From contig JBBRXX010000003.1 of NCBI GenBank assembly GCA_038238245.1, forward strand, positions 21,486 through 85,485: a stretch of DNA of 64,000 bases, given 5' to 3'. Made by a program: the position numbers and the translations under genes. Positions 4,642 through 50,086 of this stretch are shown here, piece after piece; positions within the stretch are counted from its first letter, which is position 1, and each line of letters opens with the position of its first letter. The notes beneath the pieces are model-generated. The model saw only the letters and a program-made list of their open reading frames with translations. It was not told the DNA's origin and searched no databases. The DNA comes from Acidimicrobiia bacterium (GTDB lineage: Bacteria > Actinomycetota > Acidimicrobiia > IMCC26256 > PALSA-610).

Positions 4642-4779
4642 GTTTCAGACGTCCCGGCCAGCGCCGATGACACGCACGTGTTCGATCCCTCGTCGATGCC
4701 GATCGGCGTGGAGACGCGAACGAACCTGCGTCATGAGGTGCCTCTCGACACCTCGCGGACGCAGGTTCGCCGGAAAACT

Positions 4780-24846: not shown

Positions 24847-24863
24847 ACGAACCTCCGACTGAT

Positions 24864-25073
24864 TCAGTCGCGAGTGTTGTCCGTGGTCTTCGAAGGATCG
24901 GCCTGCTGCGCGGCTGCGCGCTCGGCCTTTCGTACCCAGGCGTGCAGGGCCTGTCGCGTCGTACCGATTTGCGAGGCGACATGCATCATCGTTTGCCACT
25001 CCGTGCGGCGATCTCGCCGGGAATCGAGGACCAATTGCACCGCGCGCTGGCGTTCCTCTGCCGAGAATTCCTT
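24864..25073 (-). mobile_element. IS3-family insertion sequence remnant (N-terminal ~69 codons of orfA only)
   Basis: HTH_Tnp_1-like peptide; no orfB, frameshift site or terminal inverted repeats remain. Immediately abuts the phospholipase C start. Confidence 0.5.
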
Positions 25074-26191: not shown

Positions 26192-28162
26192 GTGGGGAAA
26201 ATTGGCAGGGATTGCTCGAGCATTGGTGCGCGGCGTGAGCGAGGCATCGCTCGTGTCGTGACTACGGCGGTGGTCGTCGCGATCGCGGCATCCACGTTGA
26301 TCTTCGTGATGCCGCAGGCACGTGCGGCGACCGAGGTCCATCTGACTGCCGCCGGCGACTACGGCGCCAGAGCGAGCACCGCGACCGTGCTCCAGAAGAT
26401 CGCCGATCTCGACCCGGATGCCCACCTGGCGCTGGGAGACCTGCGCTACGGCGACGTCGCCTCGGAGAATGCGTGGTGCAGCTACGTGAAGGCCCGGGTG
26501 GGTGAAGGCTTTCCCTTCGAGCTGATCTCGGGCAACCACGAGAGCCTCGACGAAGCAGAAGGGCTCATCAACAACTACAGCGCGTGCCTGCCGAATCAGG
26601 TCCCGGGTGTCGTCGGCACGTACGGCCGCGAGTACTACATGGACTTTCCGCAGGGCGCACCGCTTGTTCGCGTGATTCAGGCCTCGGCCACGCTGACCTT
26701 CGAGGACGGCAGGTGGGCCTATGCGCTCGGGGACGCGCACTACAACTGGGTCTCCAACGCCATCGACGATGGTCGTGCGAAGGGTGCGAAGTGGATCATC
26801 GTGACGTCGCACATTCCTTGCCTGTCGGTCGGTATCTACAACTGCCCGGCAACGGACCTCTATCGACTCTTGGCCGCGAAGAAGGTCGACCTCGTCCTGC
26901 ACGGTCATGAGCACGGGTACATGCGCACGCACCAGTTGCGCTCCGGGGTCGCGGGCTGCACCACGATTCCGTCAGGGACCTTCAACCCTGCGTGTGTCGC
27001 GGATTCCGACAACGCGTACGTCGCCGGGGCGGGTTCGGTCTTCGCGACCGTCGGCACCGGAGGAACGGCCCTCAGGGATGTCAACGCGGCCGATACGGAG
27101 GCCGGATATTTTGCGGCGTTCGAAGGGCTCAATTCCAACCCGACCTATGGCTTGCTCGACCTGTCGATCACCGACTCGCAGTTGACCGCGCAGTTCGTTC
27201 CCACGTCGGGAGGGACCTTCTCCGATTCGTTCACCATCACCAAGGGCGCGCCGCCGGAGAACCAGCCGCCGGTCGCAGCGTTCACCACACAGGTCCAGGA
27301 CCGCACGTTGACCGTCGATGGCTCCACCTCGTCGGACGCGGACGGCACCATCGCCACCTACGACTGGGACTTCGGTGACGGGTCCGTCGCGACCGGGCGT
27401 AACCCCGCCGCGCACGTCTACGCCGTGGCCGGGACCTACCAGGTCACGCTGACCGTCCACGACGACCAGGGGGCGATCAACAGCACGACGAAGTCGGTGA
27501 CCGTCACCGATCCGGTCCCGCCGAACAAGTTGGCGGAGGATCTGTTCGCGCGCACGCTCGCGTCGGGTTGGGGTTCTGCTCCGCTCGGAGGCGCGTGGAC
27601 GGTTTCCACGGCATCCGCCTTCTCGGTCAACGGGGCGGAAGGATCGATCTCCTCGAACGCAGGGGGCGGACGCAACGCGTACCTGCGCAGCATCTCGAGC
27701 AACACCACCGACGTCGTCTTCACGATGGGCAGCAACAAGGTCGTGACGGGGAGTGGTCTGTACGTGAGTGCGGTGGGTCGGTCCGTCACCGGCGCCGGCG
27801 ACTACCGATCGGTCGTGCGTTTCATGGCCGACGGGAGGGTGTCGGTCCGGCTGGGCCGCACGACGGCTGACGGTACCGAAACCGTCCTGAGGCCCGAGAC
27901 CATCGTGGCCGGCCTCACGTACGGCGCTTCGGACAAGCTGCAGACGCGCGTCCAGGTCACGGGAACGAATCCCACCACGGTGCGAACGAAGGTGTGGAAG
28001 GTCGGTGCATCCGAACCTGCCGCGTGGACGCTGACCACCACCGACGCAACCGCGAACCTGCAAGCAGCCGGGGTGACAGGCCTCGTGACCTACTTGTCGA
28101 GCAGTGCCACCAACACGCCGATCGTCTTGTCGGTGGACAACTACGTCGTGACGAAGCCGTGA
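26192..28162 (+). CDS. Secreted metallophosphoesterase (calcineurin-like) with PKD domain and C-terminal beta-rich domain
   Basis: GDLRYGD, GNHE, GHEHGY metallophosphatase motifs; PKD signature WDFGDGS; signal peptide VVVAIAASTLIFVMPQARAA. First ~22 codons have low GC3; GTG 26258 may be the true start. Confidence 0.8.
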   Translation: MGKIGRDCSSIGARRERGIARVVTTAVVVAIAASTLIFVMPQARAATEVHLTAAGDYGARASTATVLQKIADLDPDAHLALGDLRYGDVASENAWCSYVKARVGEGFPFELISGNHESLDEAEGLINNYSACLPNQVPGVVGTYGREYYMDFPQGAPLVRVIQASATLTFEDGRWAYALGDAHYNWVSNAIDDGRAKGAKWIIVTSHIPCLSVGIYNCPATDLYRLLAAKKVDLVLHGHEHGYMRTHQLRSGVAGCTTIPSGTFNPACVADSDNAYVAGAGSVFATVGTGGTALRDVNAADTEAGYFAAFEGLNSNPTYGLLDLSITDSQLTAQFVPTSGGTFSDSFTITKGAPPENQPPVAAFTTQVQDRTLTVDGSTSSDADGTIATYDWDFGDGSVATGRNPAAHVYAVAGTYQVTLTVHDDQGAINSTTKSVTVTDPVPPNKLAEDLFARTLASGWGSAPLGGAWTVSTASAFSVNGAEGSISSNAGGGRNAYLRSISSNTTDVVFTMGSNKVVTGSGLYVSAVGRSVTGAGDYRSVVRFMADGRVSVRLGRTTADGTETVLRPETIVAGLTYGASDKLQTRVQVTGTNPTTVRTKVWKVGASEPAAWTLTTTDATANLQAAGVTGLVTYLSSSATNTPIVLSVDNYVVTKP

Positions 28163-29251: not shown

Positions 29252-31324
29252 TCATCCGAGCACATGCGTTCGTCGCAGGAGGTTGTCGACCTCAGCGGCT
29301 CGCGACCGGGCGAAGGTAGCCGTGAGGTGATTCACGTCGCGCTTGACGATGATGTCGTCAACGATCGGGTCACACGTGGGCAGGCGTGGACACACGACCC
29401 GATCGAGGTCCAGCGTCACGATTTGTGGCGGCGAGGCACTCTGCCGGAAGAACTGCTCGAGAGGTGTCGGGCCCCGACTGGCTTGATACGTGCAGCGCGA
29501 GCGCCCTTCGGAGATGCAAGACAGCGGGTCGAAGGGATCAGGTGGTCGCGGCGTCGGTTCGATGATCACGATTCTTCTTCCCGCCGTCATCAGGGCGCGA
29601 AGGCTGTCCGCCGAACGCGCTTGGAGGAACGGCTCGAATTGCTCCGAGCGAGCATCGACGACGCGGCCGTCTGGCCCGAGGAAACGGTTTGAACGTATGG
29701 GATCGTCGTACGGGGCTTGCGCAAGCACCACGATGTCGGGTGCGTACTGCGGGACGACACGGTCGTACCAATCTTTCTGATGGGCGTCGCATTGCCGCGT
29801 GACTACGGCAGCCCCGGCGTACTGCAGCCCGCGTTGCCACGGACAGCCCGGGTAGATCGCGACCGAGAGCTGGAACGACTCGCGCTTCGCGATCTCGGTG
29901 AACGTCGGGAGCCACATCCGGGCGATGCTGTCGCCGACCAGTAAGACGCGACGACCGCCGCCGCGAACGGCCGCGCAACGATCGATCGGTGCGTGGAGGC
30001 AGTCGGGAAGCTTCGGGACGTCAGCCCGTGCGGTCCGCCAATCGAGGAGACGCAGACCGGTCTTCGTGCCGGTCGAGATGGATTGCGCCGCGACCGAGGA
30101 GCTGGTGCGGTCGAGGATCGCCGGCATGACGAGAAGTCCCATGAGCGCGCTCGACACCAGGCCGACCGCGATGACCGGCAGTTTCACACGATCGAGCGGG
30201 CGCGAAGTCCGCACCGGGCGCTCGAGCAGGTGGAAGCTCAGCATTGCGAGGCCGGTTGCGCCCAGCGTCGCGAGGATGAACAGCGGCACGGGATCGATGT
30301 CGCGGTCGTGGGTGACCAAGACGACGACCGGCCAGTGCCACAGATAGGTGCCGTAGGAAACGCGGCCCAGGTAGGTGAGCGGCCGCCACGAGAGAAATCC
30401 CCGTGCCGCGCCGCCATCGGCTTCTCCCAGCGCCACGATGACCACCGCAGTGAGGACTGCCGCCACGACTCCCCGGGAGATCGGGCCGAGATCCAACGCG
30501 GCCGTCCCGGTGAACACGAGCGCGACAAGCGCGAGCGCGGCGCAAACCCGGGCCGGTCTCCGGACGCGCTCGCTTGCGTTGAACAGCTGGGGAGTCAGTG
30601 CGAGGAATGCCCCCGCAAGGAGCTGATACGCGCGCGTGTCGGTGCCGTAGTACGCGCGGTCGAGATTCGTCCGCGCGATGTAGAGCGCCTCGATCGCCGA
30701 GACAATGCCGAAGGCAAGCACGAACCCTCGCAAGACGACCCAGCGCTGCCTTCCGGCCCGCTTTGCGACGAAGTACAGGCCGCCCAGCAGCGCCGGCCAG
30801 AAGATGTAGAACTGCTCCTCGACCGCGAGGGACCAGAAATGCAGAACCGGGTTCGAGCCGACCGCCCCCGCGGCGAAGTAGTCAGTCGATTGACGAATGA
30901 AGAACCAGTTCGCGACGTACAAGAAGGCCGCGCGAAACCCACCGAGGGCGTCCTGCATCTCCGCAGGCGACGCGACGACTGAATAGGCGATCGCGGTGAC
31001 GAGCAGCGCGAGCAGCGCGGCGGGCAGCAATCGGCGCACGCGCCGCGCGTAGAAGCGTGGCCAGTTGATGCTGCCGGTCGTCCGCAGGTCACCGAGCAGG
31101 ATCGAGGTGACGAGAAACCCCGACAACACATAGAAGACGTCGACGCCGATGAACCCGCCGCGGAACCAGCCCAGGCGCGAGTGAAACGCGACCACCAGGT
31201 ACACCGCCACCGCTCTGAGCCCGTCGAGCTCAGGCCGATACTTGAAGGCCGACTCATGCGAACGCGCGTCGGGCGAGATCTCTCGCCGCGGCCCGTCGGT
31301 AGCCCCAATTGTCGGTGTCGCCAT
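29252..31324 (-). CDS. Acyltransferase family 3 membrane protein with C-terminal SGNH hydrolase domain (OatA/OafA-type O-acyltransferase)
   Basis: LDGLRAVAVYLVVAFH, VDVFYVLSGFLVT; ten TM helices then an SGNH-like region. Start ATG 31324. Confidence 0.85.
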   Translation of the reverse strand: MATPTIGATDGPRREISPDARSHESAFKYRPELDGLRAVAVYLVVAFHSRLGWFRGGFIGVDVFYVLSGFLVTSILLGDLRTTGSINWPRFYARRVRRLLPAALLALLVTAIAYSVVASPAEMQDALGGFRAAFLYVANWFFIRQSTDYFAAGAVGSNPVLHFWSLAVEEQFYIFWPALLGGLYFVAKRAGRQRWVVLRGFVLAFGIVSAIEALYIARTNLDRAYYGTDTRAYQLLAGAFLALTPQLFNASERVRRPARVCAALALVALVFTGTAALDLGPISRGVVAAVLTAVVIVALGEADGGAARGFLSWRPLTYLGRVSYGTYLWHWPVVVLVTHDRDIDPVPLFILATLGATGLAMLSFHLLERPVRTSRPLDRVKLPVIAVGLVSSALMGLLVMPAILDRTSSSVAAQSISTGTKTGLRLLDWRTARADVPKLPDCLHAPIDRCAAVRGGGRRVLLVGDSIARMWLPTFTEIAKRESFQLSVAIYPGCPWQRGLQYAGAAVVTRQCDAHQKDWYDRVVPQYAPDIVVLAQAPYDDPIRSNRFLGPDGRVVDARSEQFEPFLQARSADSLRALMTAGRRIVIIEPTPRPPDPFDPLSCISEGRSRCTYQASRGPTPLEQFFRQSASPPQIVTLDLDRVVCPRLPTCDPIVDDIIVKRDVNHLTATFARSRAAEVDNLLRRTHVLG

Positions 31325-31388
31325 CTGGGGACCGCCCCGTTGTACGCGAACGGGGGAGAGGTGCTTCTTCGCGATTAGGGAGTCGGGC

Positions 31389-32639
31389 TCATGGCGAGGT
31401 TGGCGGGGGTGTCGTGCCCGTTCCGCCGCTTCCACTGGTCGGCAGCGGGATGAGCGGTGTGAGGTTCTTGTCGAACGGCAGGATGATCGTGCTGTTGTTC
31501 GGCGAGTTGACGAGCTGCTTCAGCGCCTGGATGTAGCTGAACTGCAGGTACGCCGGCGTCAACTGTGCTTGCGAGCACTCGGCGATCGGGTTCGGAATGA
31601 CGGTCTGCACCACCTGGCCGTCCCGCAGCGTCGTGGACGGCTTGCCGCCACACGCGAGGATCTGCTGCGAATCAGCCGTCGCCAACGCCTGGATCCTGGT
31701 GATGTCCGCGGCCTGCCTTGCCGTGAGAAGTTCGAACTTCTGCTGCTGTGCATTCTGCTGTGACGCCACCTTGTTGTTCACCGCGGTCTGCAGGCCTGTG
31801 CCGAGCGCCACTTCACGCAGCTGGAACTCCTGGAGCAGGAGGCCCTGCGGCTCGATCTTGGTCTTCATGCACTGGGCGACCTCGGACTCGAGGCGCCGCC
31901 ACGCCGTCGTCGCCGCCTCGACGATCGTGTAGAGCGTGAACTGCGTGCGAATGCACGTCCTGGCGGTCGGCCGAACGATCTGGCTCGCATACTTGGTTCC
32001 GAGGGTGCGGTACACGTCGGTCGCGCGCCTCGGGTCGAGGCGGTACAGCACGGTTGCATTCACGTTCGCGGCACCGCCGTCCGAACCCAGCACCGCAACG
32101 GAGTCATCGGCGCTCGCCGCCGCGCCCTCACCCTTGAGCGCCGACATCGTGTAGTTCTGCGTCCGCACAGACATCCCATAGGTAGTAGTGAACGGAAGCG
32201 TGATGTGGAAACCCGCCGACAACGGCTTGCTCGCGTGGCCGAGGGTTACCGGCACCGCGACCGAGCCCGGCTTGACGATGTGAATCGACGTCCACACGAA
32301 CACGATGGCGAACGCGATGGCAATCGACGTCCCGAGGCGCTTCCACGAGCGCGGCCCGATGGTGCCGTCGGGGTTGCGGGGACGCATGATGCCCAAGGTG
32401 ATCAGGACGGTGCTGATCCCGGCGCCGATCTGACGGAAGAGGAACCGCCCGAACGACGGCGCCGTCTTGGGCTCCCGGCGTTCGGAGACCAGGGCGCCGA
32501 TGGGCCGCTGTACCCGAGGTTCGCTGGTCATTCTGGGCGGCTGGTCGATCGGCGGCCCGTCGCCACCATTGCCGCCATCACTGAAGTCGTCCGTGGAACC
32601 GCTGTCCGGCATCGGCGCATCGTAACGAATATCGACCAA
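31389..32639 (-). CDS. SPFH/band-7 domain membrane protein
   Basis: TM anchor, then an SPFH-like core, then a Gln/Ala-rich coiled region and Pro/Thr-rich tail. Confidence 0.7.
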   Translation of the reverse strand: MVDIRYDAPMPDSGSTDDFSDGGNGGDGPPIDQPPRMTSEPRVQRPIGALVSERREPKTAPSFGRFLFRQIGAGISTVLITLGIMRPRNPDGTIGPRSWKRLGTSIAIAFAIVFVWTSIHIVKPGSVAVPVTLGHASKPLSAGFHITLPFTTTYGMSVRTQNYTMSALKGEGAAASADDSVAVLGSDGGAANVNATVLYRLDPRRATDVYRTLGTKYASQIVRPTARTCIRTQFTLYTIVEAATTAWRRLESEVAQCMKTKIEPQGLLLQEFQLREVALGTGLQTAVNNKVASQQNAQQQKFELLTARQAADITRIQALATADSQQILACGGKPSTTLRDGQVVQTVIPNPIAECSQAQLTPAYLQFSYIQALKQLVNSPNNSTIILPFDKNLTPLIPLPTSGSGGTGTTPPPTSP

Positions 32640-32684: not shown

Positions 32685-33581
32685 CTATTTGGCACTCCAA
32701 CGCGCGCGGAACGCAGCGAGCTCGTCCGGTGCGTAGAAATGCCGTGCGTACGCAGTCGCGTACGCACGTTCGAGCACGGCGTCGGGCAGGGACACTTCAC
32801 GAAGGAACGAGCGGTACGCGGCGGCGTACTCCAAGGCCTCGGCGTCGTTGCGGCGCGCGATCGGTACGGTCGCCGGGAGGCGGAGGAACTCACGCAGCGC
32901 TTCCGGTGCGCGGTCGAGATCCTCCTGCCGCGCGAGCAGCACGCGAACGGCGGGCGTGTCGATTGTCGAGAAGCCGGCCGATGGGTCGAACGGGTACGCG
33001 AACACGTCGACGCCGAGCGTTGGCAGGAATTCCCGTTCGAACCAACGCATCGGCATGCGGAGCCAATCCTCGGCGAGTATGCGCTCGGTCAACGCCGCGA
33101 CATCCTGGTGGTCCTGCAGCGTGCCGCTGCGCCGGCCGCCGTGGAAGAACGCGGACACGGCCTGGGCGACCGGCTCGCGCACGGTCGTGATGACATCCCA
33201 CGGCTTCTGCGGCGTGGGCATGTGCCGGAGGAGGAATTCCGTCTCCCAGAGGTGAAGCGCTCCGGGGAACCGCACAGTCGACGCATCCTTACGACCACGT
33301 TTCGCATCGCGGTGCGATGCGCGGTAGCGCTTCTCGGCGCCGGCGAGCTCGGCCGCGTTGAGCCGGAAGACCTGAAATGCGCGTCGACCCGTCGCGTCCG
33401 AGACGGCGCGCGCGATTGCAGTGCTTCCGGTCTTGCCCATCGTGAAGACGACGATTCGCCGGTCGGCATCACCGCGCATCTGCCACATGGCGTAGCGCTT
33501 CGAGATCGCGTAGCTCCGCCCCGCGATACTTCGAGCTGCATCGTGCGCCCGGCGCCGAGCGCGGATCGAGGGTGGCGCCAT
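32685..33581 (-). CDS. Sulfotransferase-family protein (Stf0-like, P-loop type)
   Basis: IVVFTMGKTGSTAIARAV resembles the PAPS 5'-phosphosulfate-binding loop of Stf0-type sulfotransferases. Confidence 0.55.
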   Translation of the reverse strand: MAPPSIRARRRAHDAARSIAGRSYAISKRYAMWQMRGDADRRIVVFTMGKTGSTAIARAVSDATGRRAFQVFRLNAAELAGAEKRYRASHRDAKRGRKDASTVRFPGALHLWETEFLLRHMPTPQKPWDVITTVREPVAQAVSAFFHGGRRSGTLQDHQDVAALTERILAEDWLRMPMRWFEREFLPTLGVDVFAYPFDPSAGFSTIDTPAVRVLLARQEDLDRAPEALREFLRLPATVPIARRNDAEALEYAAAYRSFLREVSLPDAVLERAYATAYARHFYAPDELAAFRARWSAK

Positions 33582-33591
33582 GTTCGCGTCC

Positions 33592-34419
33592 CTAGACGTC
33601 TTCGAGCGCTGCCGCGTCCGTGTCCTCGATGTCCTCTTCCGCGAAATACGCCTCGACCGCTTCGGACGCGGGGGCGTCCATGCGGAGCTCGCCGCGGTCG
33701 AGCCAGATGCAATGCTCCGCGAGCAGCCTCACCACCTCGAGTCCGTGCGACACGATCAACACCGTGCAGTCCCGCTCGCAGAGCTCACGGATCTTTTCCA
33801 TGCATCTCAGCTTGAACGCGGCGTCACCGGCGGAGAGCGCCTCGTCGATCAGCAGGATCTCCGGGTTCAGGTGCACGGCGACCGCGAACGCGAGGCGGCC
33901 GAACATGCCCGACGAGTACGTGCGCATCGGGAAGTCGATGGCGCCACCGAGCCCTGCGAACTCCTCGATCTCGTCCTCGTGGACCCGCACCTCGTCGCCG
34001 GCGAGACCGACGGTCAATCCTCCGAGGAGGATGTTCTCTCTTCCGGTGAGCTCACGGTTGAATCCGATGCCGAGCGACAGCAGCGGCGTGACGTGGCCCC
34101 ACACCGCGACCCGCCCCGCCGTAGGCGGCAGGATGCCGGCGATGCAGCGCAGCAGTGTGGTCTTGCCGGCGCCGTTGCGGCCGATGATCCCGTACACGGC
34201 GCCCGACGGCACCTCGAAGCTCACGCCGCGCAACGCCTCGACGAGCATCGCCTGCTTGCGCTCGCTGCGGCGATGCAAGCCGACGAGCCGGTTTCTCAGG
34301 GTCGGGCGTCCCTCTCGGTTGGCGCGAAAGGTCACCCAGAGGTCGTCGACCCATATCGCCGGAGGACGATCAGAGCCGGACGGCAAATTCCCGCTCCTTC
34401 GCAAGGAAGATGAGTGCAC
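33592..34419 (-). CDS. Polysaccharide ABC exporter ATP-binding protein (Wzt/TagH-like)
   Basis: Walker A GRNGAGKTT, signature YSSGM, Walker B LLIDEA. Confidence 0.85.
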   Translation of the reverse strand: MHSSSLRRSGNLPSGSDRPPAIWVDDLWVTFRANREGRPTLRNRLVGLHRRSERKQAMLVEALRGVSFEVPSGAVYGIIGRNGAGKTTLLRCIAGILPPTAGRVAVWGHVTPLLSLGIGFNRELTGRENILLGGLTVGLAGDEVRVHEDEIEEFAGLGGAIDFPMRTYSSGMFGRLAFAVAVHLNPEILLIDEALSAGDAAFKLRCMEKIRELCERDCTVLIVSHGLEVVRLLAEHCIWLDRGELRMDAPASEAVEAYFAEEDIEDTDAAALEDV

Positions 34420-35218
34420 CGACGACGAAGATGCCGACCGCCCACGCGGCGGCCGCGAGCAAGTTTCCCGAAGAAGGGAACTGCGCGTTGAAGATCTGCT
34501 CGAGAGCCCCGAAGAACGGGTAGAGCGGATTCCACTGCAGGTACACCTTGAGGTTCGCCGGGATCTCCTTCGTCGAGTACAGCACCGGTGTCATGTACAG
34601 CCAGAGTCTGTTGAGGTACGGCAGAAAGTTCGCCGTGTCTCGAAAGAACACGTTGGCGGCGGCCATGATGAAGATGACGCCCAGATTGAAGACGGTCAGG
34701 AGCGGCACCACGAGCAGCAGGCTCAGCAGGGAAAGGCCGAACGGCTGGCCGAGAATGGCATGGAAGATTCCGTAGATGGCCAGCGTCGGCAGGAAATCGA
34801 GAATGCTTTTCACGATCGCGACGAGCGGGAGCACGGCGCGCGGAAACGACGCGTTGAGGACCAAGCCCCTCCCGCTGATGAGCGAGCGCGCGCCATAGCT
34901 CATCGAGTTGTTCGTGAAGGTGAAGAAGAAGACGCCCCAGATCAGGTGCGACAGGATGAGGGCGCGGGTGTCGCCGGTGCCGGCCGACTTCACGACGGAG
35001 CGGAAGAAGAAGTACACGCCGGCCGACAGCAACGGATCGAGGATGATCCACGCCTGTCCGATGACCGTCCCGTAGTTCTTCGACTTGAGGTCGGTGCGGG
35101 CGAGGTGCCAGATGAAACGGCGCCGTACACGCAGGTCGTGGAGGTAACGCCGCATCGGCGGAAGACCGGACTCGGTCGCCTCGTAGACCGATGGCATGCG
35201 GATGGAGGACGCCGACAT
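34370..35218 (-). CDS. ABC-2 type polysaccharide exporter permease (Wzm-like)
   Basis: Six TM helices and the ABC-2 signature region; start uncertain (MSASSIR 35218 or MPSVYEAT 35197). Confidence 0.8.
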   Translation of the reverse strand: MSASSIRMPSVYEATESGLPPMRRYLHDLRVRRRFIWHLARTDLKSKNYGTVIGQAWIILDPLLSAGVYFFFRSVVKSAGTGDTRALILSHLIWGVFFFTFTNNSMSYGARSLISGRGLVLNASFPRAVLPLVAIVKSILDFLPTLAIYGIFHAILGQPFGLSLLSLLLVVPLLTVFNLGVIFIMAAANVFFRDTANFLPYLNRLWLYMTPVLYSTKEIPANLKVYLQWNPLYPFFGALEQIFNAQFPSSGNLLAAAAWAVGIFVVGALIFLAKEREFAVRL

Positions 35219-35270
35219 GGATTCCCGGTGCTGCCTCGAGCGAAATTCTGGGAGCGATTGCTCCGGCATC

Positions 35271-36506
35271 CTACCGATTGCCGGGCGCGCTGGTTTCGAG
35301 GCGCTCGAGTGCGCTCACCACCCGTTCCACCGACCGGTCCCACGACCAGTGTGCAACCGCGGCCGCTCGTCCTTGCCGTCCGAGGCGTGCACGCTCCTCC
35401 GGACGATCGCGCAGCCAAGTGAGGGAGCGAGTGAGCTGCGCGACGTCTCCCGGGTCGACCAGCAGCGCGTCGACGCCGTCATCGAGTTGGGCGGGTATCG
35501 CGCCCGCCCGGGGCGCGACGACGGCGACGCCGCACGCGAGGTACTCGGCGAGCTTGAGCGGCGAATAATGGAAGTCGGCGCCCGGCTCCGCGAGGACCAC
35601 CGCCGCGTCCATCGCGGCAATGTGCGCCGGGAGCTCTTCGTGCGGGACGGTCCCCGTGGACACCAGCGGGACGCCGCGCTCGCGTGCGAGCGTCTCGATC
35701 GTGGCGCGCTCCGGTCCGTCGCCGACGAGCAGTAACACCGTGCCCGGCATCGCCGTCAGCGCGTTGACGAGTTGGCCGAGGCCGTGGAACTTGCGAAAGC
35801 TGCCGACCCACCCGACGACGAACTCGCGGCCGAGACCCAACCGGCGACGAACAGCCGCCCCATCGGCGCGCGCGTTGAAGACGTCAGGATCGAAACCCGT
35901 GCGTACGATGACGACGCGCTCCTCGGCGACGCCGAGGCGACCGACCTGCTCCGCGACGAGCTCGGAGCCGCACGCAACCAGATCGGCACGGCCGAGGACC
36001 CGCGCCTCTCCGAACTGTTCGAGCAGACGACTCCAACCCGGTCTCCGGACGCCCCACTGTCGTGCCTGCCACATCAGTGGCGCGGGCACGAACAGCACCG
36101 AGGGCACGCCGAGCGCACCCGCGAGCTCGACGCCGGCGGTATGGAACAACTCGTGCCGCTGCCAGACGAAGCGCACGTCGTGCTTCGCCCAGGCGCCATC
36201 GGGCGTGACGTGAAACGTCTGCGCGCGGCGAAATTCGCGAGCGTCCTTCACCGCCGTCTTCGCGACGACGGGCAGCCGGCGCCGCCACGAAGTCGTCGGC
36301 GCGGCCGCGAGCTGAGGGTGCGCGGCCCGGCGACGCACGTCGTCGACACTCATCAGACCGGCGGGCGCGACGATCCAGATGTCGCCGACGACCCGTCGGA
36401 TCGCCGTGGCCCACCCGGCGGTGCTGACCCATGCCGCTACGGGGCCTTGTTGTCCGGCCGTCGTGGTGGGCAGCACGAGGATCGCGCCTGCAGGCCGATC
36501 ATTCAC
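35271..36506 (-). CDS. Glycosyltransferase family 4 (GT-B, retaining)
   Basis: C-terminal EX7E-type region: GVPLVSTGTVPHEELPAHIAAMDAAVVLAEPGADFHYSPLKLAEYLACGVAVVAP. Confidence 0.8.
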   Translation of the reverse strand: MNDRPAGAILVLPTTTAGQQGPVAAWVSTAGWATAIRRVVGDIWIVAPAGLMSVDDVRRRAAHPQLAAAPTTSWRRRLPVVAKTAVKDAREFRRAQTFHVTPDGAWAKHDVRFVWQRHELFHTAGVELAGALGVPSVLFVPAPLMWQARQWGVRRPGWSRLLEQFGEARVLGRADLVACGSELVAEQVGRLGVAEERVVIVRTGFDPDVFNARADGAAVRRRLGLGREFVVGWVGSFRKFHGLGQLVNALTAMPGTVLLLVGDGPERATIETLARERGVPLVSTGTVPHEELPAHIAAMDAAVVLAEPGADFHYSPLKLAEYLACGVAVVAPRAGAIPAQLDDGVDALLVDPGDVAQLTRSLTWLRDRPEERARLGRQGRAAAVAHWSWDRSVERVVSALERLETSAPGNR

Positions 36507-37912: not shown

Positions 37913-40900
37913 GTGGGGTCGGCGAGGACGCCGGATCGTTTCGCACGAAGCGTCTACGACGTCGCGCGCGGGCGCGGTAACACAAGCCTGCGTATCTTGG
38001 ATATCGGCGTCATCACGGCGGCGTGGCTTCTCGCGTACGTCGCGGGCTTCGACGGTGCGGTGCCGCTCGGAACGCGCGGCCTGATCCCGTACCTGGTGAT
38101 TCCGGTCGCGACGCAGCTGCTCTTCAACCACCTCGTCGGCCTTTACGGGCCGGTGTGGCGCTATGCCTCCGTCGAGGAGGCGTTGCGCGTCGTCGGCGCG
38201 GTCGCCGGCGGTCTGTTGGTCTCGGTCTTCGAGCTCGCCTGGTACGCGGACCTTCGCGGAACGCGACTCCCGTTGCTGAGCGCGCCGCCGATTGCGGCGC
38301 TGCTGATGTTGTTGGGATGCGGCGGTCTCCGATTCCAAGCGCGACTGTTCGCGCTGGAGCGTGAGCGGAACAGCAAGAACCGGTTGCGAACGCTGATCGT
38401 CGGCGCGGGCGATTCGGGTGCCGGGCTCGCGCGTGAGCTCACGCAACGCAGGTCCACGGATTCGATGCCGGTCGGCTTCGTCGACGACGACCGAACGCTC
38501 TTCCGACGGTCGGTGCGCGGCCTGCCGGTGTTCGGCCCGATCGACGACCTCGAGAAGGTCTGCCGGGACGAGCGCATCGATCGCATCATGATCGCGCTGC
38601 CGGGTGCACCTCGTGAGCGGTTGCGCGACGTCGTCACCCAGTCATTGCGAACGGACGCGCAGGTCAAGGTGCTCTCCGACGCGTCCGGGCCCCACGGCGA
38701 GCCTCTTGTCGACAACCTGCGCAACCTCGACCCTGCCGACCTCCTCCGTCGAGAGCCTGCGCTCATCGACTCAGAAGGGATCGCGGCCTACCTGCACGGC
38801 GCGACCGTGCTCGTCACCGGCGCCGGTGGGTCGATCGGCTCCGAGATCTGTCGGCAGGTGGCTTCCTACGCGCCGCGCAAGCTCCTGCTGCTCGACCGCG
38901 ACGAGAGTCTCCTCTTCGAGGCGATGTCGACGATGCCCACCGGCGAGCCTCTTCTCGTCGACATTCGCGACGAGGGGCGGTTGCAGGACGTCTTCGAGCG
39001 CCACCGGCCCGACGTCGTCTTCCACGCCGCCGCGTTCAAGCACGTTCCGATCCTCGAGACGCACGCCGCGGAGGCGGTCGAGACGAATCTGCTCGCGACC
39101 TGGACGCTCGCGCAGATCTCGGCCAAGTACGGCTGTCGCTTCGTGTACATCTCCACCGACAAGGCGGCCGCGCCGCACTCGGTGCTCGGCGCGACAAAAC
39201 GCGCGGCCGAACAAGTCGTCCTCGCCGTTGGCCGGGAGAACGGGCTCGCGTTCTCGGCCTTGCGTTTCGGCAATGTGCTCGGAAGCCGAGGAAGCGTCGT
39301 GCCGACGTTCTTCCGGCAGATCCTCGAGGGTGGTCCGGTCACCGTGACCGACCCGGGGATGACGCGCTACTTCATGACGATCCCCGAAGCCGTGCGACTC
39401 GTACTGCAGACCGGCGCGATCGCCGAGGAACGAAAAGTGTTCTTGCTCAACATGGGCGAGCCGGTACGCATCGTCGAGCTCGCGCGCCAGATGATTCGCA
39501 TGAGCGGCTTGCGTCCCGATCGGGACATCGAGATCAAGTTCGTGGGCATGCGGCCCGGCGAGAAGCTTTGCGAGCAGCTCTACGACGACACCGAGACCAT
39601 CGCACCCACCTGGCACCCCTCGATCCTCGGTGTGACCTCGCACGTCGTCGCCGAGAACGACTTCTTCGGCGCCCTCGAGCTGATGCGAGACAGGTGCGCG
39701 GGCGCAGAGAACACTGACGTGTTGGAGCTTCTCGACGAGCTCTTGCGGGAGTGCGGCGTCACCTGCAACCTCGCGGGGCAGGCGCGTATCGAGACCGAGA
39801 GCGACGACCACGACCTCGGTACCGCGCCTGCGCAGGTCACCGACCTCACCGAGACGAGCGCAGATCGCAAGCGCATCGTCCTGCCGACGCGGCCCGCGCT
39901 GCTCGGTGGCACACCCGCCTTTGCCGCGGGCCTCCCGTTCGCGCGTCCTACCCGACCGTCACTCGGTCGCGTGATGCGGCGGCTGCGCTCATCGTACGAA
40001 GCCGGCATCCTGACGAACGGTCCTCTCGTCGCGGAGCTCGAAGAACGCGCCGCAGAGCGTCTCGCCGTCCGGCATGTCATCGCGATGAGCTCGTGCACCT
40101 CGGGGCTGATGCTCGCAGTGCAGGCGCTCACCGACGGCAGATCCGGACCCGTGGTGCTGCCGAGCTTCACCTTCTCGGCAACTGCCCATGCCGTCATGTG
40201 GAACGCGCGCCTGCCGAGGTTCGCCGACTGCGTGCGTGAGTCGATGCAGATCGATGCAGTACACGCCGCGGCCCTGCTGGACGGTGCCAGCGCGCTCATC
40301 GCCACGCATGTCTTCGGCGCCCCATGCGATCCCGACGGCATCGTCCGGCTCGCACGGGCCCACGATGTCCCGGTGCTCTTCGACTCCGCGCATGCATTCG
40401 GCGCGCGCGCCGGAAGCGACGTCGTGGGGGGATTCGGCGCGGCGGAGGTCTTCAGCTTGACACCCACCAAGGTGTTGGTCGCGGGGGAAGGCGGCCTCGT
40501 TGCGACGAACGATGCCTCGCTCGCAGAGCTTTTGCGCATGGGCCGCAACTACGGCGACCCGGGCGACTACGACACGAAGTTTGCGGGCTTGAACGCGCGC
40601 ATGTCGGAGTTCCACGCCGCAACTGCTCTCCAGTCGCTCGAGCTCCTCGATGACGCATTGCACCGGCGGAATGCGATCGCACAGATCTACCGCAACAACC
40701 TGCGCGACGTGCCCGGCGTCGGGTTCCAGCACGTACCGCAAGGCGACTTCAGTACCTACAAGGATTTCGTGATCACGATCGATCCCAATGCGTTCGGTGT
40801 GACGCGGGACGTCCTGGTGCTCGCGCTCGCCGCCGAGGGGATCGACACACGGAGCTATTTCGATCCGCCGGTGCACCGCCAACGCGCGTACCAGCACGTT

Positions 40901-41068
40901 GCGCACGACGATCTCCCGGATACCGAGGCCGTGTCCTCGCGTATCCTCGCGCTGCCGATGTTCACGGACCTTCGTGACGAAGAAGTCGAGCGGGTCGCCG
41001 ACGTCATCGCCGCGGTACACGAGCACGCGGATGCGATCGTGGCCAGCGGCCACGCCTACGCCGACTGA
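37913..41068 (+). CDS. Bifunctional fusion: membrane-anchored NDP-sugar 4,6-dehydratase (CapD/PglF/WbpM-like) + DegT/DnrJ/EryC1-family PLP aminotransferase (PglE-like)
   Basis: N-terminal four TM helices; two Rossmann motifs (LIVGAGDSGAGLA, VLVTGAGGSIGSEIC); Polysacc_synt_2 core (GATKRAAEQ...FGNVLGSRGSV). After ~650 aa an aminotransferase core (GILTNGPLVAELEERAAERL...AMSSCTSGLMLA...SLTPTKVL). Confidence 0.85.
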   Translation: MGSARTPDRFARSVYDVARGRGNTSLRILDIGVITAAWLLAYVAGFDGAVPLGTRGLIPYLVIPVATQLLFNHLVGLYGPVWRYASVEEALRVVGAVAGGLLVSVFELAWYADLRGTRLPLLSAPPIAALLMLLGCGGLRFQARLFALERERNSKNRLRTLIVGAGDSGAGLARELTQRRSTDSMPVGFVDDDRTLFRRSVRGLPVFGPIDDLEKVCRDERIDRIMIALPGAPRERLRDVVTQSLRTDAQVKVLSDASGPHGEPLVDNLRNLDPADLLRREPALIDSEGIAAYLHGATVLVTGAGGSIGSEICRQVASYAPRKLLLLDRDESLLFEAMSTMPTGEPLLVDIRDEGRLQDVFERHRPDVVFHAAAFKHVPILETHAAEAVETNLLATWTLAQISAKYGCRFVYISTDKAAAPHSVLGATKRAAEQVVLAVGRENGLAFSALRFGNVLGSRGSVVPTFFRQILEGGPVTVTDPGMTRYFMTIPEAVRLVLQTGAIAEERKVFLLNMGEPVRIVELARQMIRMSGLRPDRDIEIKFVGMRPGEKLCEQLYDDTETIAPTWHPSILGVTSHVVAENDFFGALELMRDRCAGAENTDVLELLDELLRECGVTCNLAGQARIETESDDHDLGTAPAQVTDLTETSADRKRIVLPTRPALLGGTPAFAAGLPFARPTRPSLGRVMRRLRSSYEAGILTNGPLVAELEERAAERLAVRHVIAMSSCTSGLMLAVQALTDGRSGPVVLPSFTFSATAHAVMWNARLPRFADCVRESMQIDAVHAAALLDGASALIATHVFGAPCDPDGIVRLARAHDVPVLFDSAHAFGARAGSDVVGGFGAAEVFSLTPTKVLVAGEGGLVATNDASLAELLRMGRNYGDPGDYDTKFAGLNARMSEFHAATALQSLELLDDALHRRNAIAQIYRNNLRDVPGVGFQHVPQGDFSTYKDFVITIDPNAFGVTRDVLVLALAAEGIDTRSYFDPPVHRQRAYQHVAHDDLPDTEAVSSRILALPMFTDLRDEEVERVADVIAAVHEHADAIVASGHAYAD

Positions 41069-41093: not shown

Positions 41094-42029
41094 TCAGGGC
41101 TCGGCTGCCCACGAACGAGGCGACGTGAACACGACGAGCGCCGCGATCCCGATACCCGCGACTGTGACGATCGTGATCCCGATCGCGGTCGTGGACGCGA
41201 GCGACGCAACGCCTATTCCGACGGCCGTCAGCGCGACCTGCCCGGCTGCGCACGCGAGCACTGACGCCTCGAGCGGCCAGCCCCGGTCGACGAGCTGATC
41301 GTAGACATGGCCGCGATCGCCTCGGAGCACGGGACGTCGCGCGCGCACTCGCCGGACGATCGCGACGACGGTGTCGCCGACGGGAACGCCGACGAACAGG
41401 ATCGCGCCGCTGATCACCGGGGAACCGTGCTGCGTCGCATCGGCGAACATCACCGCGAGTGCAGTCCCGATCAGGTAGCTGCCGGCGTCGCCGAGATACA
41501 CGCGCGCCGGAGGCCGGTTCCACACGAGGAAGCCCGCGAGCGCGCCGACGAGTGCGAGCGCCAGCGTCGACACCGCCCCGCCCAGAACGACTGAGAAGCC
41601 GACCGCGCCGGTCAGGGTCACTGTGGCGGCGAGGCCGTCGAGACCGTCGAGCAGGTTCACGGCATTGAGCAGCACGAGCTCGACGACGAGCGCGACGGCC
41701 AGGTGCCAGAAGTCGTGGGGTGCGACCATCCACGCCACGATGACCCCGAGCACGGCCTCGGCCGGCAGCCGGATCCTCACTGACAGGTCGCGGATGTCGT
41801 CGACGAGGCCGAGCGCGGACGCCAGGCCGAGGGGAACCAGCAGCGACGGGCGGTCCACCGCCACCGGTACGACGATCGCGAGCAGGACCGCGATGCCGCC
41901 CGCATACGGCACGGCCTGCTGGTGGACCTTCAGCGGTCCGGGCCGATCGACGAGACCGACACGTGTCGCAGCCCACGCGGCGACCGGCGAAAGGATCACC
42001 GCGACCGCAAAGCCCGCGATCAGGGCCAC
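41094..42029 (-). CDS. Polyprenyl-phosphate N-acetylhexosamine-1-phosphate transferase (GT4 MraY/WecA/WbpL family), initiating phosphoglycosyltransferase
   Basis: NAVNLLDGLDGLA signature, multiple TM helices. Confidence 0.85.
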   Translation of the reverse strand: MALIAGFAVAVILSPVAAWAATRVGLVDRPGPLKVHQQAVPYAGGIAVLLAIVVPVAVDRPSLLVPLGLASALGLVDDIRDLSVRIRLPAEAVLGVIVAWMVAPHDFWHLAVALVVELVLLNAVNLLDGLDGLAATVTLTGAVGFSVVLGGAVSTLALALVGALAGFLVWNRPPARVYLGDAGSYLIGTALAVMFADATQHGSPVISGAILFVGVPVGDTVVAIVRRVRARRPVLRGDRGHVYDQLVDRGWPLEASVLACAAGQVALTAVGIGVASLASTTAIGITIVTVAGIGIAALVVFTSPRSWAAEP

Positions 42030-46074: not shown

Positions 46075-46171
46075 CCACCAAGGCGCGCCCGGGCGGCTGC
46101 GGTCGACCGAACCGCTCGGTACCAGGTCCGGAGACGCGGGCAGCGAGCCGTCCTCGCCCACGCTCACCGGT

Positions 46172-49988: not shown

Positions 49989-50086
49989 TCCCGCGTCCAA
50001 GTGTGTGGCCGCGCGCGTTGGCGCGTCGCCTGCGCGCCGCGCTCGTGACGCGCGGCTCACACCGCGGGACCCGCGCCGCGGCCACG

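Follow-up and report, generated by a model that had tools for sequence, protein, structure and literature searches.

Capsule loci that combine ABC-transporter export with several sulfotransferases are already known in marine bacteria. Chemically proven sulfated polysaccharides come from sulfotransferase-bearing clusters in Vibrio sp. KMM 8419 and Cobetia marina KMM 1449 (PMC11641403, PMC11766843). These capsule loci resemble the locus described here in that an ABC transporter and glycosyltransferases are found together with one or more sulfotransferases. There are also clear differences. First, the Vibrio and Cobetia loci carry their own cysDNC and cysQ genes, whereas the window, i.e., the whole 64-kb stretch of DNA analysed, has no PAPS genes. 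Second, the marine loci belong to diderm cells and export their capsules by the Kps-type group 2/3 route, whereas the host of the window is a probable monoderm actinobacterium. Third, the marine sulfotransferase genes are not placed after the ATPase gene, whereas the gene studied here, ST1, is fixed in a wzm-wzt-ST1-SPFH operon.

A functional parallel is provided by WbdD of E. coli O9a, which, as is predicted for ST1, works in the cytoplasm to modify a glycan that an ABC transporter exports. WbdD acts on the lipid-linked polymer ahead of export (PMC3482155). WbdD is a kinase and methyltransferase whose cap is read by a module of Wzt; in the present locus, ST1 would instead add sulfate, and Wzt lacks a module of this kind.

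Among proteins in the PDB, the best sequence match to a wide profile of ST1 relatives is heparan sulfate 2-O-sulfotransferase (HS2ST, or 2-OST; Sulfotransfer_2; PDB 3F5F/4NDZ), a Golgi type II membrane enzyme. The two align at the PSB lysine (K50 of ST1 with K83), at the strand after helix 1 that holds a histidine column (H106), and at the 3'-PB R-D-P-x5-S. In contrast to HS2ST, ST1 has no PF03567 match, its C-terminal half is assigned to a separate Pfam family (PF10364), its H106-equivalent residue is Phe, and the catalytic HGH pair is not aligned residue for residue. Moreover, ST1 is a predicted soluble bacterial protein encoded in an exporter operon. NDST1 (1NST), 3-OST-3 (1T8T) and 3-OST-5 (3BD9) are linked to ST1 only at the level of fold and profile, with 13–16% identity, and NDST1 and the 3-OSTs have unrelated acceptors, animal glycosaminoglycans. 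Mycobacterial Stf0 (PF09037, PDB 1TEX) shares with ST1 the sulfotransferase superfamily fold and an actinobacterial host.

The ST1 gene and the exporter operon

The two sulfotransferase-type genes of the window are:

32685..33581 (-): ST1, ATG start, 298 aa, predicted soluble, sulfotransferase-fold protein with PF10364 as its C-terminal half
51771..52586 (-): ST2, 271 aa, canonical carbohydrate sulfotransferase of the Sulfotransfer_1/3, 3-OST/NDST-like type

A preliminary description of this DNA had reported the ST1 reading frame, with a P-loop-like GKTGST motif, and had placed it between an SPFH gene and a Wzt-type ATPase gene. Translation confirms an ORF at exactly these coordinates with the motif at aa 49–54, and the neighbors are as described, the SPFH protein matching Band_7 (E 7e-21) and the ATPase being Wzt/TagH-like. 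ST1 has at least 189 homologues at E<=1e-3 and belongs to a family of 4,896 representative clusters at 50% identity; these numbers rule out a chance ORF. At third codon positions, the GC of ST1 is 0.81, as in real genes of this 67% GC window. Neither ST1 nor ST2 has a predicted transmembrane segment or signal peptide, and the predicted location of ST1 is cytoplasmic. An HMM search of the 64-kb window found no further ST1- or ST2-type paralogues, meaning that each type is single-copy there.

The genes around ST1 are:

29252..31435 (-): AT3-SGNH O-acyltransferase, last gene of the string (Acyl_transf_3 E 4e-31, SGNH E 2e-22)
31389..32639 (-): SPFH/Band_7 membrane protein, downstream of ST1, one TM-like segment
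33592..34419 (-): Wzt-type ABC ATPase, upstream of ST1 (ABC_tran E 1.5e-19, aa 63-195)
34370..35269 (-): Wzm-type ABC-2 permease (ABC2_membrane E 1.5e-7; galactan_ABC_perm E 8e-15)
35271..36506 (-): GT4 glycosyltransferase, first gene of the GT4-wzm-wzt-ST1-SPFH string conserved by synteny
37913..41068 (+): PglF-like 4,6-dehydratase fused to a DegT aminotransferase (Polysacc_synt_2 E 4e-98, DegT E 3e-84)
41094..42029 (-): WecA/MraY-family polyprenyl-phosphate sugar-1-phosphate transferase, the initiating enzyme (Glycos_transf_4 E 6e-25)

ST1 is a fixed member of the GT4-wzm-wzt-ST1-SPFH operon in its clade, which consists of uncultured soil Actinomycetota and has an Acidimicrobiia MAG as the nearest named relative. 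Among metagenome loci that leave room of >500 nt, wzt lies directly upstream of ST1 on the same strand in all 24, and SPFH lies directly downstream in 20 of 22 loci with room. In the window, the stop codon of wzt and the start codon of ST1 are separated by 10 nt with no terminator between them, and a scan of the operon for promoters and terminators found nothing above chance. The module has the same gene order in the related loci L001 to L006, at 42–82% identity. The PglF-DegT gene, which would supply an amino-dideoxy-hexose, is conserved with the exporter module, and the AT3-SGNH gene is also found in L001 and L002. The best NCBIfam matches of Wzt are exporters of galactan or teichoic acid (Wzt/TagH), with a galactan_ABC_ATP score of 183.9 bits against a cutoff of 400, which it does not reach. 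Divergence is faster in ST1 (82% identity in L001) than in the neighboring Wzm, Wzt, SPFH and PglF-DegT (90–94%), which weighs against the function proposed below.

What seemed to be a fusion of Wzt with ST1, the 514-aa protein P0008, proved to be an assembly artefact: the L002 DNA is frameshifted in wzt as well as in ST1, and the supposed linker arises from reading out of frame.

What is the likely function of ST1? Its constant place just after the exporter genes suggests that the clade makes a sulfated cell-wall sugar polymer. The explanation that we favor, and that as a whole is probably correct, with fair rather than high confidence, is that ST1 is a soluble, cytoplasmic, PAPS-dependent sulfotransferase-type enzyme that sulfates the lipid-linked glycan bound for the exporter. 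Specifically, the WecA-like enzyme would start a polyprenyl-diphosphate-linked glycan, cytoplasmic GT4 enzymes would elongate it, and ST1 would transfer sulfate from PAPS to a hydroxyl of the lipid-linked glycan at the cytoplasmic face. Wzm/Wzt would then export the sulfated polymer. ST2, encoded 18 kb away, may add a second, different sulfate. For ST1, the analysis shows the fold, both motifs, membership of the superfamily, the conserved operon and a cytoplasmic location, and from these we infer the PAPS donor, the catalytic competence, the glycan acceptor and the identity of the base.

Alternatively, ST1 could be an export-coupled chain terminator and a counterpart of WbdD, with a single sulfate on the non-reducing end of the finished polymer that halts elongation and tags the chain for Wzm/Wzt. 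We consider this unlikely; to our knowledge, no sulfate cap has been described. The position of ST1 is consistent with such a role, since the slot directly after wzt, seen in 24/24 informative loci, is also that of wbdD in E. coli O8/O9a. ST1 follows the transporter, and ST2 and other tailoring genes shift position. Some ST1 relatives occur in giant proteins for glycan assembly, as tandem copies joined to GT2, GT1 and methyltransferase domains, an arrangement like that of multi-domain polymerase/terminator proteins. No sulfate is seen in the O-antigen repeat of Aeromonas salmonicida even though wzt is followed there by an ORF with a sulfotransferase domain (PMC4483657), which is how a terminal cap would look, although this ORF is not shown to be a member of the PF10364 family. 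The structure of the exporter argues against termination by sulfate. Wzt in the window has 275 aa (262–265 aa in relatives in homologous loci) and consists of the nucleotide-binding domain only, without a C-terminal carbohydrate-binding module, whereas cap-dependent exporters recognize the cap via such a module (PMC9445017).

Cofactor-binding motifs and candidate catalytic residues

The segments of ST1 relevant to its proposed active site, located by translation, are:

33420..33440 (-): 5'-PSB MGKTGST, aa 48-54, with GKTGST at aa 49-54 and Lys50
33360..33374 (-): QVFRL, aa 70-74, with Phe72 in place of the family His
33243..33254 (-): HLWE, aa 110-113, with His110 and/or Glu113 as candidate catalytic base
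33153..33179 (-): 3'-PB REPVAQAVS, aa 135-143, with Arg135 and Ser143

Two sets of sequences were compared: 113 diverse relatives that represent the wide family (profile A3), and 36 members of the close clade (close-clade profile A1). The 5'-PSB is conserved in the wide family at K50 (108/113), G52 (104/113) and G49 (103/113). In the predicted structure, it follows a strand at residues 42–46 and opens a helix at residues 50–64. The 3'-PB is still better conserved, with R135 and P137 in all 113 relatives and S143 in 103; a strand at residues 128–134 is predicted to lead into R135...S143, on a helix at residues 137–152. This segment aligns with IRDPIERLVS of 2-OST, VRDPVTRAIS of 3-OST-3, and LRNPIDRANS of ST2 (hhalign E 7e-5). 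Within the clade, MGKTGSTA and VREP..Q..SA.FH are invariant. In the proposed reaction, Lys50 would stabilize the leaving phosphate, Arg135 and Ser143 would grip the 3'-phosphate, with either His110 or Glu113 serving as the base.

The assignment of the candidate base to His110 and/or Glu113 reflects the spacing expected for such a residue: HLWE, also invariant in the clade, lies 60 residues past the PSB lysine and 25 ahead of the PB arginine. In a profile alignment, it falls 3–5 residues before the FYHGH segment of 2-OST. The loop that carries HLWE is the least confident part of the ST1 model, with block-mean pLDDT values of 52 (aa 101–110) and 69 (aa 111–120).

Residue 72 is the site of the best-conserved His in the family (110/113), and is Phe in all 36 clade members; therefore, catalysis may differ or be lost in the clade. 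Similarly, Lys250 is present in 102 of the 113 family members and is replaced by Leu in ST1 of the window and its closest relatives. These losses, together with retained nucleotide-binding motifs and faster evolution of ST1 than of its operon neighbors, could be explained if ST1 in this clade were a non-catalytic PAPS/PAP-binding pseudo-enzyme that serves as an exporter adaptor or sensor. We regard this as improbable. The clade has its own set of invariant polar residues (H110, E113, H147, R183, E184, R218, E220, N245 and H281), which fits a working active site. By profile, the residue-72 column lines up with the latter of the two His in YHVLHI of 2-OST, His106 in human numbering. The H106A substitution in 2-OST changes acceptor preference, and this residue sets acceptor preference rather than catalysis (PMC12834895). 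Lastly, the situation is reversed in L003, a more distant wzt-linked homologue, which has His72 but lacks H110/E113, suggesting that the base has been relocated, not lost.

A further alternative, in which ST1 phosphorylates the glycan as a P-loop kinase or another kind of NTP-dependent phosphotransferase, is very unlikely. The ST1 sequence does contain G-K-T, the sulfotransferase fold is related to that of nucleotide kinases, and a PDB search with the ST1 sequence alone returned only a borderline P-loop hit, to a gluconate kinase (E 0.5). Nevertheless, ST1 has no GxxxxGK[ST] Walker A motif, the residue five before G49 being Val44, and the most conserved feature of the family is an R-x-P-x5-S 3'-phosphate motif that kinases do not have. 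Moreover, sulfotransferase families of Pfam, four in number, are matched among the 113 relatives, and kinase families are not.

Family and superfamily placement of ST1

Sulfotransferase-type identity of ST1 is supported at the level of the superfamily. The only Pfam match of ST1 is:

32730..33059 (-): PF10364 “NKWYS”, aa 175-284, C-terminal half of the sulfotransferase-like domain

This match scores 53.8 bits against a gathering score of 25.1 and covers profile positions 31–139 of 139, leaving the first 30 unmatched. The structural model is also most confident here, its block-mean pLDDT being mostly >90 apart from a single dip to 65 at aa 241–250. PF10364 is matched by 112 of the 113 diverse relatives.

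The N-terminal half of the family is, by sequence comparison, distantly related to Sulfotransfer_2 and heparan sulfate 2-O-sulfotransferase. Because single-sequence phmmer with ST1 and the A1 profile gave only chance-level matches against all PDB sequences, the wider A3 profile was needed. A3 matched 2-OST (4ndz, 3f5f) at E 5.6e-4 and 3-OST-3 at E 1.6e-3, and in these matches the PSB Lys and the PB Arg and Ser of the ST1 family are aligned. Among the 113 relatives, 19 match Sulfotransfer_2 (at E<=0.01), six match Sulfotransfer_1, two match Sulfotransfer_4 and two match Sulfotransfer_3. Sulfotransfer_2 (PF03567) has no match to ST1 itself at E<=1. Three multi-domain relatives score 23.0–25.7 bits for Sulfotransfer_2 against a cutoff of 22, with no single stretch passing alone; in one of the relatives, P0246, the reported stretch is in the second copy (aa 368–418), outside the N-terminal half. 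The relationship of ST1 to Sulfotransfer_2 is thus judged to be remote and not one of membership. A comparison of the ST1 clade with the ST2 family by hhalign aligned the 3'-PB strand and helix locally; the global alignment found nothing, only the local 3'-PB alignment was significant, and the PSB alignment at low mact is of low confidence. Structural comparison places the overall alpha/beta fold of ST1 closest to solved sulfotransferases. With the superfamily fold and both cofactor motifs, ST1 is a sulfotransferase-type enzyme by prediction.

The preliminary description had called ST1 Stf0-like, i.e., of the mycobacterial trehalose or glycolipid sulfotransferase type, and this family assignment is refuted: ST1 is, like Stf0, an actinobacterial sulfotransferase-fold protein with a P-loop-like PSB, but PF09037 has no match in ST1 at E<=1 or in any of the 113 relatives at E<=0.01, the PSB of ST1 is G49-K50-T-G52 where Stf0 has Arg/Ala in place of the Lys/Gly of others (PMC11625862), sixteen other sulfotransferases fit the fold better, and the context is a polyprenyl-linked glycan exporter operon with no lipid pathway, such that the Stf0 reading has almost no chance of being right.

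The PF10364 family is a large, uncharacterised bacterial family whose members have never been labelled as sulfotransferases. NCBI annotates an ST1 homologue only as “putative capsular polysaccharide synthesis family protein”, and the Pfam label of PF10364 is “putative capsular polysaccharide synthesis protein”. Searches of the literature for “PF10364” and “NKWYS” returned nothing relevant, and no biochemistry was found for any family member. Two distant members, P0260 and P0300, are on contigs of ~1 kb, which are uninformative for gene context.

Implications

What are the implications of a sulfotransferase-type enzyme in this operon? First, the work on ST1 gives a testable sulfotransferase function to a family of ~4,900 clusters. 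A 2024 review does not include PF10364 among the sulfotransferase families that it lists, and surveys of bacterial polysaccharide sulfation that use Sulfotransfer_1 and Sulfotransfer_2 would overlook this family. Second, sulfated envelope polymers are predicted in abundant, uncultured soil actinobacteria, for which our literature search found no report of such polymers. Third, given the invariant wzm-wzt-ST1-SPFH operon, one may ask if sulfation can be coupled to ABC-transporter export or chain-length control. Phosphate-methyl and Kdo caps are linked to these processes in Gram-negative O-antigens. Fourth, polysaccharide sulfotransferases with new regio-specificities could be of practical use in the production of sulfated glycans.

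A broader proposal is that a housekeeping cell-wall glycopolymer of this widespread, Acidimicrobiia-like lineage of soil Actinomycetota is negatively charged by sulfate instead of phosphate, making it a phosphorus-free analogue of teichoic acid. The conserved GT4-wzm-wzt-ST1-SPFH core would assemble this polymer. ST1, from a sulfotransferase family (PF10364) not recognized before, would tie sulfation mechanistically to export, either by placing a terminal cap or through a licensing step at the transporter, and its base would have moved from His72 to His110/Glu113 in this clade. As a whole, this proposal is speculative and quite unlikely to hold.

ST2 and the supply of PAPS

The second sulfotransferase and the gene next to it have the following features:

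52227..52253 (-): 3'-PB of ST2, RNPIDRANS
52500..52526 (-): 5'-PSB of ST2, GAQKSATRW
52606..53676 (-): PhyH-family Fe(II)/2-oxoglutarate dioxygenase, 19 nt upstream of ST2 (PhyH E 5e-19)

ST2 scores 39.7 for Sulfotransfer_3 (gathering score 27) and 29.7 for Sulfotransfer_1 (gathering score 22). Its PDB matches include 3rnl (E 1e-24), 3-OST-3 (E 4e-13) and NDST1 (E 3.5e-7), with residue-level alignment to 3-OST-3 and 3rnl. Glu79, in GEATPGY, aligns with EKTPSYF of 3-OST-3, which holds the catalytic Glu of the 3-OST type, and the PSB Lys (K24), the Arg and Ser of the PB (R112, S120) and E79 are invariant in 23 homologues.

The interpretation in the preliminary description, of two sulfotransferases from different families within a glycan export locus, is supported in part. 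The lineages do differ, ST1 being PF10364 with a Sulfotransfer_2-like N-terminal half and ST2 being Sulfotransfer_1/3. Alignment shows intact 5'-PSB and 3'-PB motifs in both proteins, counter to the loss of motifs that the description had named as grounds for refutation, and both genes are inside the Wzm/Wzt glycan locus. The view that a dedicated pair in an export locus is unusual was overstated, given the multi-sulfotransferase ABC loci of Vibrio and Cobetia (PMC11641403, PMC11766843). Genes for PAPS synthesis (cysDNC) and PAP phosphatase (cysQ) were not found in the 64-kb window. This counts against the sulfation reading, since the Vibrio and Cobetia loci have PAPS genes within the cluster (PMC11641403, PMC11766843).

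The ST1 and ST2 gene families are both abundant in metagenomes. ST2 is apparently on the same contigs as ST1 in four other assemblies, and related loci have additional sulfotransferase paralogues. A PhyH gene is found near ST2 in locus L007 as well.

Family placement of ST1

The open reading frame at 32685..33581(-) starts with ATG and encodes a 298-aa protein, ST1, with GKTGST at aa 49-54. Its third-position GC (0.81) is in line with that of other genuine genes in the window (GC 67%), and it has hundreds of homologues. What kind of protein is ST1? Its sole Pfam match is PF10364 ("NKWYS, putative capsular polysaccharide synthesis protein"), covering aa 175-284 only. It matched neither Stf0 (PF09037) nor any Sulfotransfer_n family of Pfam even at E<=1 and nothing in NCBIfam, and searches of all PDB sequences with the single sequence and with a profile of its close clade found no match above chance. 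The sulfotransferase class is defined by a Lys and a Gly in the 5'-phosphosulfate-binding motif (PSB) and a Ser, preceded by Arg, in the helix of the 3'-phosphate-binding motif (PB); Stf0, whose PSB has Arg and Ala, is the exception (PMC11625862). ST1 has Lys and Gly, so the "Stf0-like" label of the preliminary description is wrong on this count as well as on the HMM classification.

At E<=1e-3 an exhaustive HMM search finds 4,896 representative clusters of the family, of which 996 remain at E<=1e-30. Three results were obtained with 113 diverse representatives (27-51% identity to ST1; 112 match PF10364) and with the ST1 clade of 36 close homologues. First, some representatives match sulfotransferase families of Pfam: Sulfotransfer_2 (19/113), Sulfotransfer_1 (6), Sulfotransfer_4 (2) and Sulfotransfer_3 (2); kinase families are absent from the Pfam matches of all 113. 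Second, their profile finds, among all PDB sequences, the heparan sulfate sulfotransferases 2-OST (4ndz, 3f5f; E 5.6e-4) and 3-OST-3 (E 1.6e-3), pairing mGKvGS with VPKTAST and vtlVRdPvarnvSaFF with INVIRDPIERLVSYYY. Third, when the ST1 clade is compared by hhalign with the family of ST2, the second sulfotransferase of the locus, VITTVREPVAQAVSAFFH aligns to LIAILRNPIDRANSAMLHH (E 7e-5). The best-kept columns among the representatives belong to the two cofactor motifs: all 113 have R135 and P137, 108 have K50, 104 have G52, and 103 each have G49 and S143. Given these three results and the conserved columns, ST1 is, on sequence grounds, a member of the sulfotransferase superfamily, with PF10364 making up the C-terminal half of the domain.

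Putative active site of the ST1 clade

Of the 113 representatives, 110 have His as residue 72, where the strand that follows the PSB helix ends. In ST1 and all 36 clade members this residue is Phe, and the clade reads Q70-V-F72-R73-L. In the profile alignment this column meets the latter of the two His of YHVLHI in 2-OST, which we take, by counting along the human sequence, to be His106; the same count puts R80, K83 and Y94 at what are presumably their literature positions. Of these residues, PMC12834895 names Y94 and H106 alone; there, the H106A substitution in 2-OST altered acceptor preference and did not abolish activity. Invariant in the ST1 clade is H110-L-W-E113, within a loop that is the lowest-confidence part of the predicted ST1 model. 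Counting from the PSB Lys, H110 comes 60 residues later, with the PB Arg a further 25 residues on; this spacing is known for the catalytic His in cytosolic sulfotransferases and in 2-OST. In the profile alignment H110 falls 3-5 residues ahead of the 2-OST segment FYHGH. The reverse pattern occurs in a relative at 42% identity (locus L003, 5139..5912), also encoded after wzm-wzt, which keeps the family His72 (FHVHNL) and lacks H110 and E113. A catalytic or acceptor residue may thus have moved between the two. We tentatively read the Phe72/H110 pattern as a changed acceptor pocket or a relocated base rather than as a dead enzyme.

A conserved exporter operon

The immediate neighbours of ST1 are as follows.

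31389..32639(-), Band_7/SPFH protein, downstream of ST1
33592..34419(-), Wzt-type ABC ATPase (wzt), upstream of ST1
34370..35269(-), ABC-2 permease (wzm), upstream of wzt

Coordinates, translation and domain searches thus bear out the reading frame, the GKTGST motif and the SPFH and Wzt neighbours that had been described for ST1. The wzt stop codon and the ST1 ATG are 10 nt apart, and a scan of the wzt-ST1 operon gave no terminator-like signals above chance. A single transcription unit, GT4 (35271..36506)-wzm-wzt-ST1-SPFH-AT3-SGNH, is suggested by how the genes are oriented and by how little space lies between them.

Two metagenome-assembled genomes (L001, an Acidimicrobiia bacterium, at 82% identity; L002 at 73%) share the order wzm-wzt-ST1-SPFH, and so do three loci with 53-57% identity (L004 to L006); L003 keeps wzm-wzt-ST1 as far as its contig end. 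A further 40 metagenome loci of the ST1 clade were surveyed. All 24 that have more than 500 nt of sequence ahead of ST1 carry wzt there as the immediate neighbour, on the same strand; of the 22 with over 700 nt behind it, 20 have SPFH as the next gene. Because this order is kept in both sets, ST1 belongs to the conserved core of the system and is not an accessory decoration. Genes GT4a and GT4b and a PglF-DegT fusion also recur wherever contigs are long enough. An apparent Wzt-ST1 fusion of 514 aa in the protein database (P0008, ABC_tran plus PF10364; L002, 9347..10891, contig CAWAGX010000015.1) is false and results from frameshifts inside wzt and ST1. The SPFH protein has one TM-like segment and is a fixed downstream partner of ST1, a putative flotillin-like scaffold within a polysaccharide ABC-exporter operon.

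ST2 and the surrounding glycan locus

The 271-aa protein ST2, encoded at 51771..52586(-), scores above the gathering thresholds of Sulfotransfer_3 and of Sulfotransfer_1, the family to which it had been assigned. With PDB matches to 3rnl (E 1e-24), 3-OST-3 (E 4e-13) and NDST1 (E 3.5e-7), it is by sequence a clear homologue of carbohydrate sulfotransferases of known structure. Its PSB (GAQKSATRW), PB (RNPIDRANS) and the Glu of GEATPGY are invariant in 23 homologues; GEATPGY aligns to the EKTPSYF segment of 3-OST-3, which we take to hold the catalytic Glu. The position of ST2 varies (18 kb from ST1 in the window, adjoining wzm in L040), as does its copy number (L007 and L008 carry two paralogues apiece). 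Homologues of ST1 and ST2 share contigs in four other assemblies (40,965, 10,939, 49,341 and 66,868 bp; paired on size). Beside the ST2 orthologue lie extra sulfotransferase genes (L007, 3412..4353 and ~4505..5149; L008, 7910..8689), namely a second ST2-like copy in each locus and, in L007, a Sulfotransfer_3 gene, so relatives differ in how many putative sulfation enzymes they have. A PhyH-family Fe(II)/2-oxoglutarate dioxygenase gene, 52606..53676(-), ends 19 nt ahead of ST2 on the same strand, and PhyH is also near ST2 in L007; the two could be a hydroxylate-then-sulfate pair.

A large glycan-assembly region fills the window from ~28 kb and runs past its 64-kb end. It includes an initiating transferase and the fusion.

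41094..42029, WecA-like initiating transferase
37913..41068(+), PglF-like dehydratase and DegT aminotransferase fusion

The latter is a single 1,051-aa ORF with a membrane-anchored dehydratase part and has same-length genes or full-length matches in L001, L002, L005 and L006. There are at least seven further glycosyltransferase genes (five GT4-type, one GT1-GT2 fusion, one GT2), and genes for a GNAT protein, a deacetylase, an AT3-SGNH O-acyltransferase, two methyltransferases, the PhyH dioxygenase and an SDR. The deacetylase (Polysacc_deac_1, 43797..44705(-)) is probably cytoplasmic because it has neither signal peptide nor TM segment; speculatively, it and the NDST/3-OST-like ST2 could N-deacetylate and then N-sulfate an amino sugar, like heparan sulfate NDST. 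Several polytopic membrane proteins have no Pfam match. Two of them, 56432..58981(+) and 61923..63539(-), have 8-9 TM-like segments and a common N-terminal DEWDF/DDWDF motif and may be GT-C-type extracytoplasmic glycosyltransferases; a third, 44605..46278(-), has 7 TM-like segments and no assigned family. In the longest ORF, 49124..51760(+) (878 aa), the Arg-rich first ~300 aa are probably non-coding. Only its C-terminal Glyco_trans_1_2 region has the look of genuine coding sequence, which makes a start codon further downstream likely.

Proposed pathway and alternatives

How might these proteins act together? The best-supported model, all of whose chemistry we infer, is one of assembly, sulfation and export. 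The glycan would be built on polyprenyl phosphate at the inner membrane face; ST1 and, separately, ST2 would move sulfate from PAPS onto the lipid-linked glycan; the sulfated chain would then be exported by Wzm/Wzt; and AT3-SGNH acylation and the polytopic transferases would follow outside the cytoplasm. Neither ST1 nor ST2 has predicted TM segments or a signal peptide, as expected for users of the cytoplasmic donor PAPS. The product is probably a glycopolymer linked to the wall, not LPS, given that Acidimicrobiia and Actinomycetes are the nearest named relatives and that the exporter is best matched by models of galactan and teichoic-acid exporters.

A less probable function for ST1 is the addition of a chain-terminating sulfate cap. 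This would fit its fixed slot after wzt and the precedent of Aeromonas, where a sulfotransferase-domain ORF follows wzt and the repeat unit is without sulfate (PMC4483657), but the Wzt here lacks a carbohydrate-binding module. That ST1 is a PAPS-binding pseudo-enzyme, as the change of His72 to Phe might imply, is unlikely, and a P-loop kinase is very improbable for a protein that lacks Walker A and has the 3'-PB motif.

The general scheme has parallels: in Vibrio and Cobetia, sulfated polysaccharides are known to be made by gene clusters that combine an ABC transporter with several sulfotransferases. There, cysDNC and cysQ are inside the cluster, a pairing that the authors call a pathway hallmark (PMC11641403, PMC11766843). 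In contrast, no cysD, cysN, cysC or cysQ was found anywhere in the 64-kb window. With these precedents the general idea is not new, and the preliminary description overstated how unusual a sulfotransferase pair in an export locus is. What is new? First, fold prediction and profile comparison show a large family annotated without function to be sulfotransferase-like; the sulfotransferase families listed in PMC11625862 do not include PF10364, and the NCBI name of a marine homologue is only "putative capsular polysaccharide synthesis family protein." Second, the exporter-embedded wzm-wzt-ST1-SPFH arrangement is conserved in uncultured soil actinobacteria. Third, the ST1 clade has an apparently re-modelled active site.

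Additional observations

ST1-type domains also occur in tandem, and some are joined to GT2, GT1, GT-D-like, FkbM and Methyltransf_24 domains, the largest such protein reaching 2,484 aa; this fits a putative enzyme working on a growing cytoplasmic glycan. Three proteins with one or two ST1-type domains and these partners (P0245, 2,484 aa; P0312, 1,523 aa; P0253, 944 aa) look like the modular polymerases/terminators known from ABC-dependent O-antigen systems. The marine Vibrio campbellii (NZ_CP050465.1) has two unannotated ST1-family genes, 9001..9765 and 12145..12900 of locus L012, 3 kb apart and ~7 kb from an ABC ATPase gene, and plasmid pAge77 of Thalassovita gelatinovora has a member amid GDP-fucose synthesis genes and a GT10 fucosyltransferase (L011). 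The glycan locus is bordered by two large phosphoesterases, 22465..24999(-) (PF04185 and three FN3) and 26192..28162(+) (Metallophos and PKD), whose PKD/FN3 domains suggest that both are extracellular; phosphate scavenging next to a polymer that is putatively sulfated (anionic, yet free of phosphorus) is no more than a hint. Finally, 11450..12115(+) strongly matches the NpmA-type 16S rRNA (adenine1408-N1) methyltransferase family (E 6e-67; 225 bits, cutoff 60), an aminoglycoside-resistance type of enzyme here found in an environmental actinobacterium.
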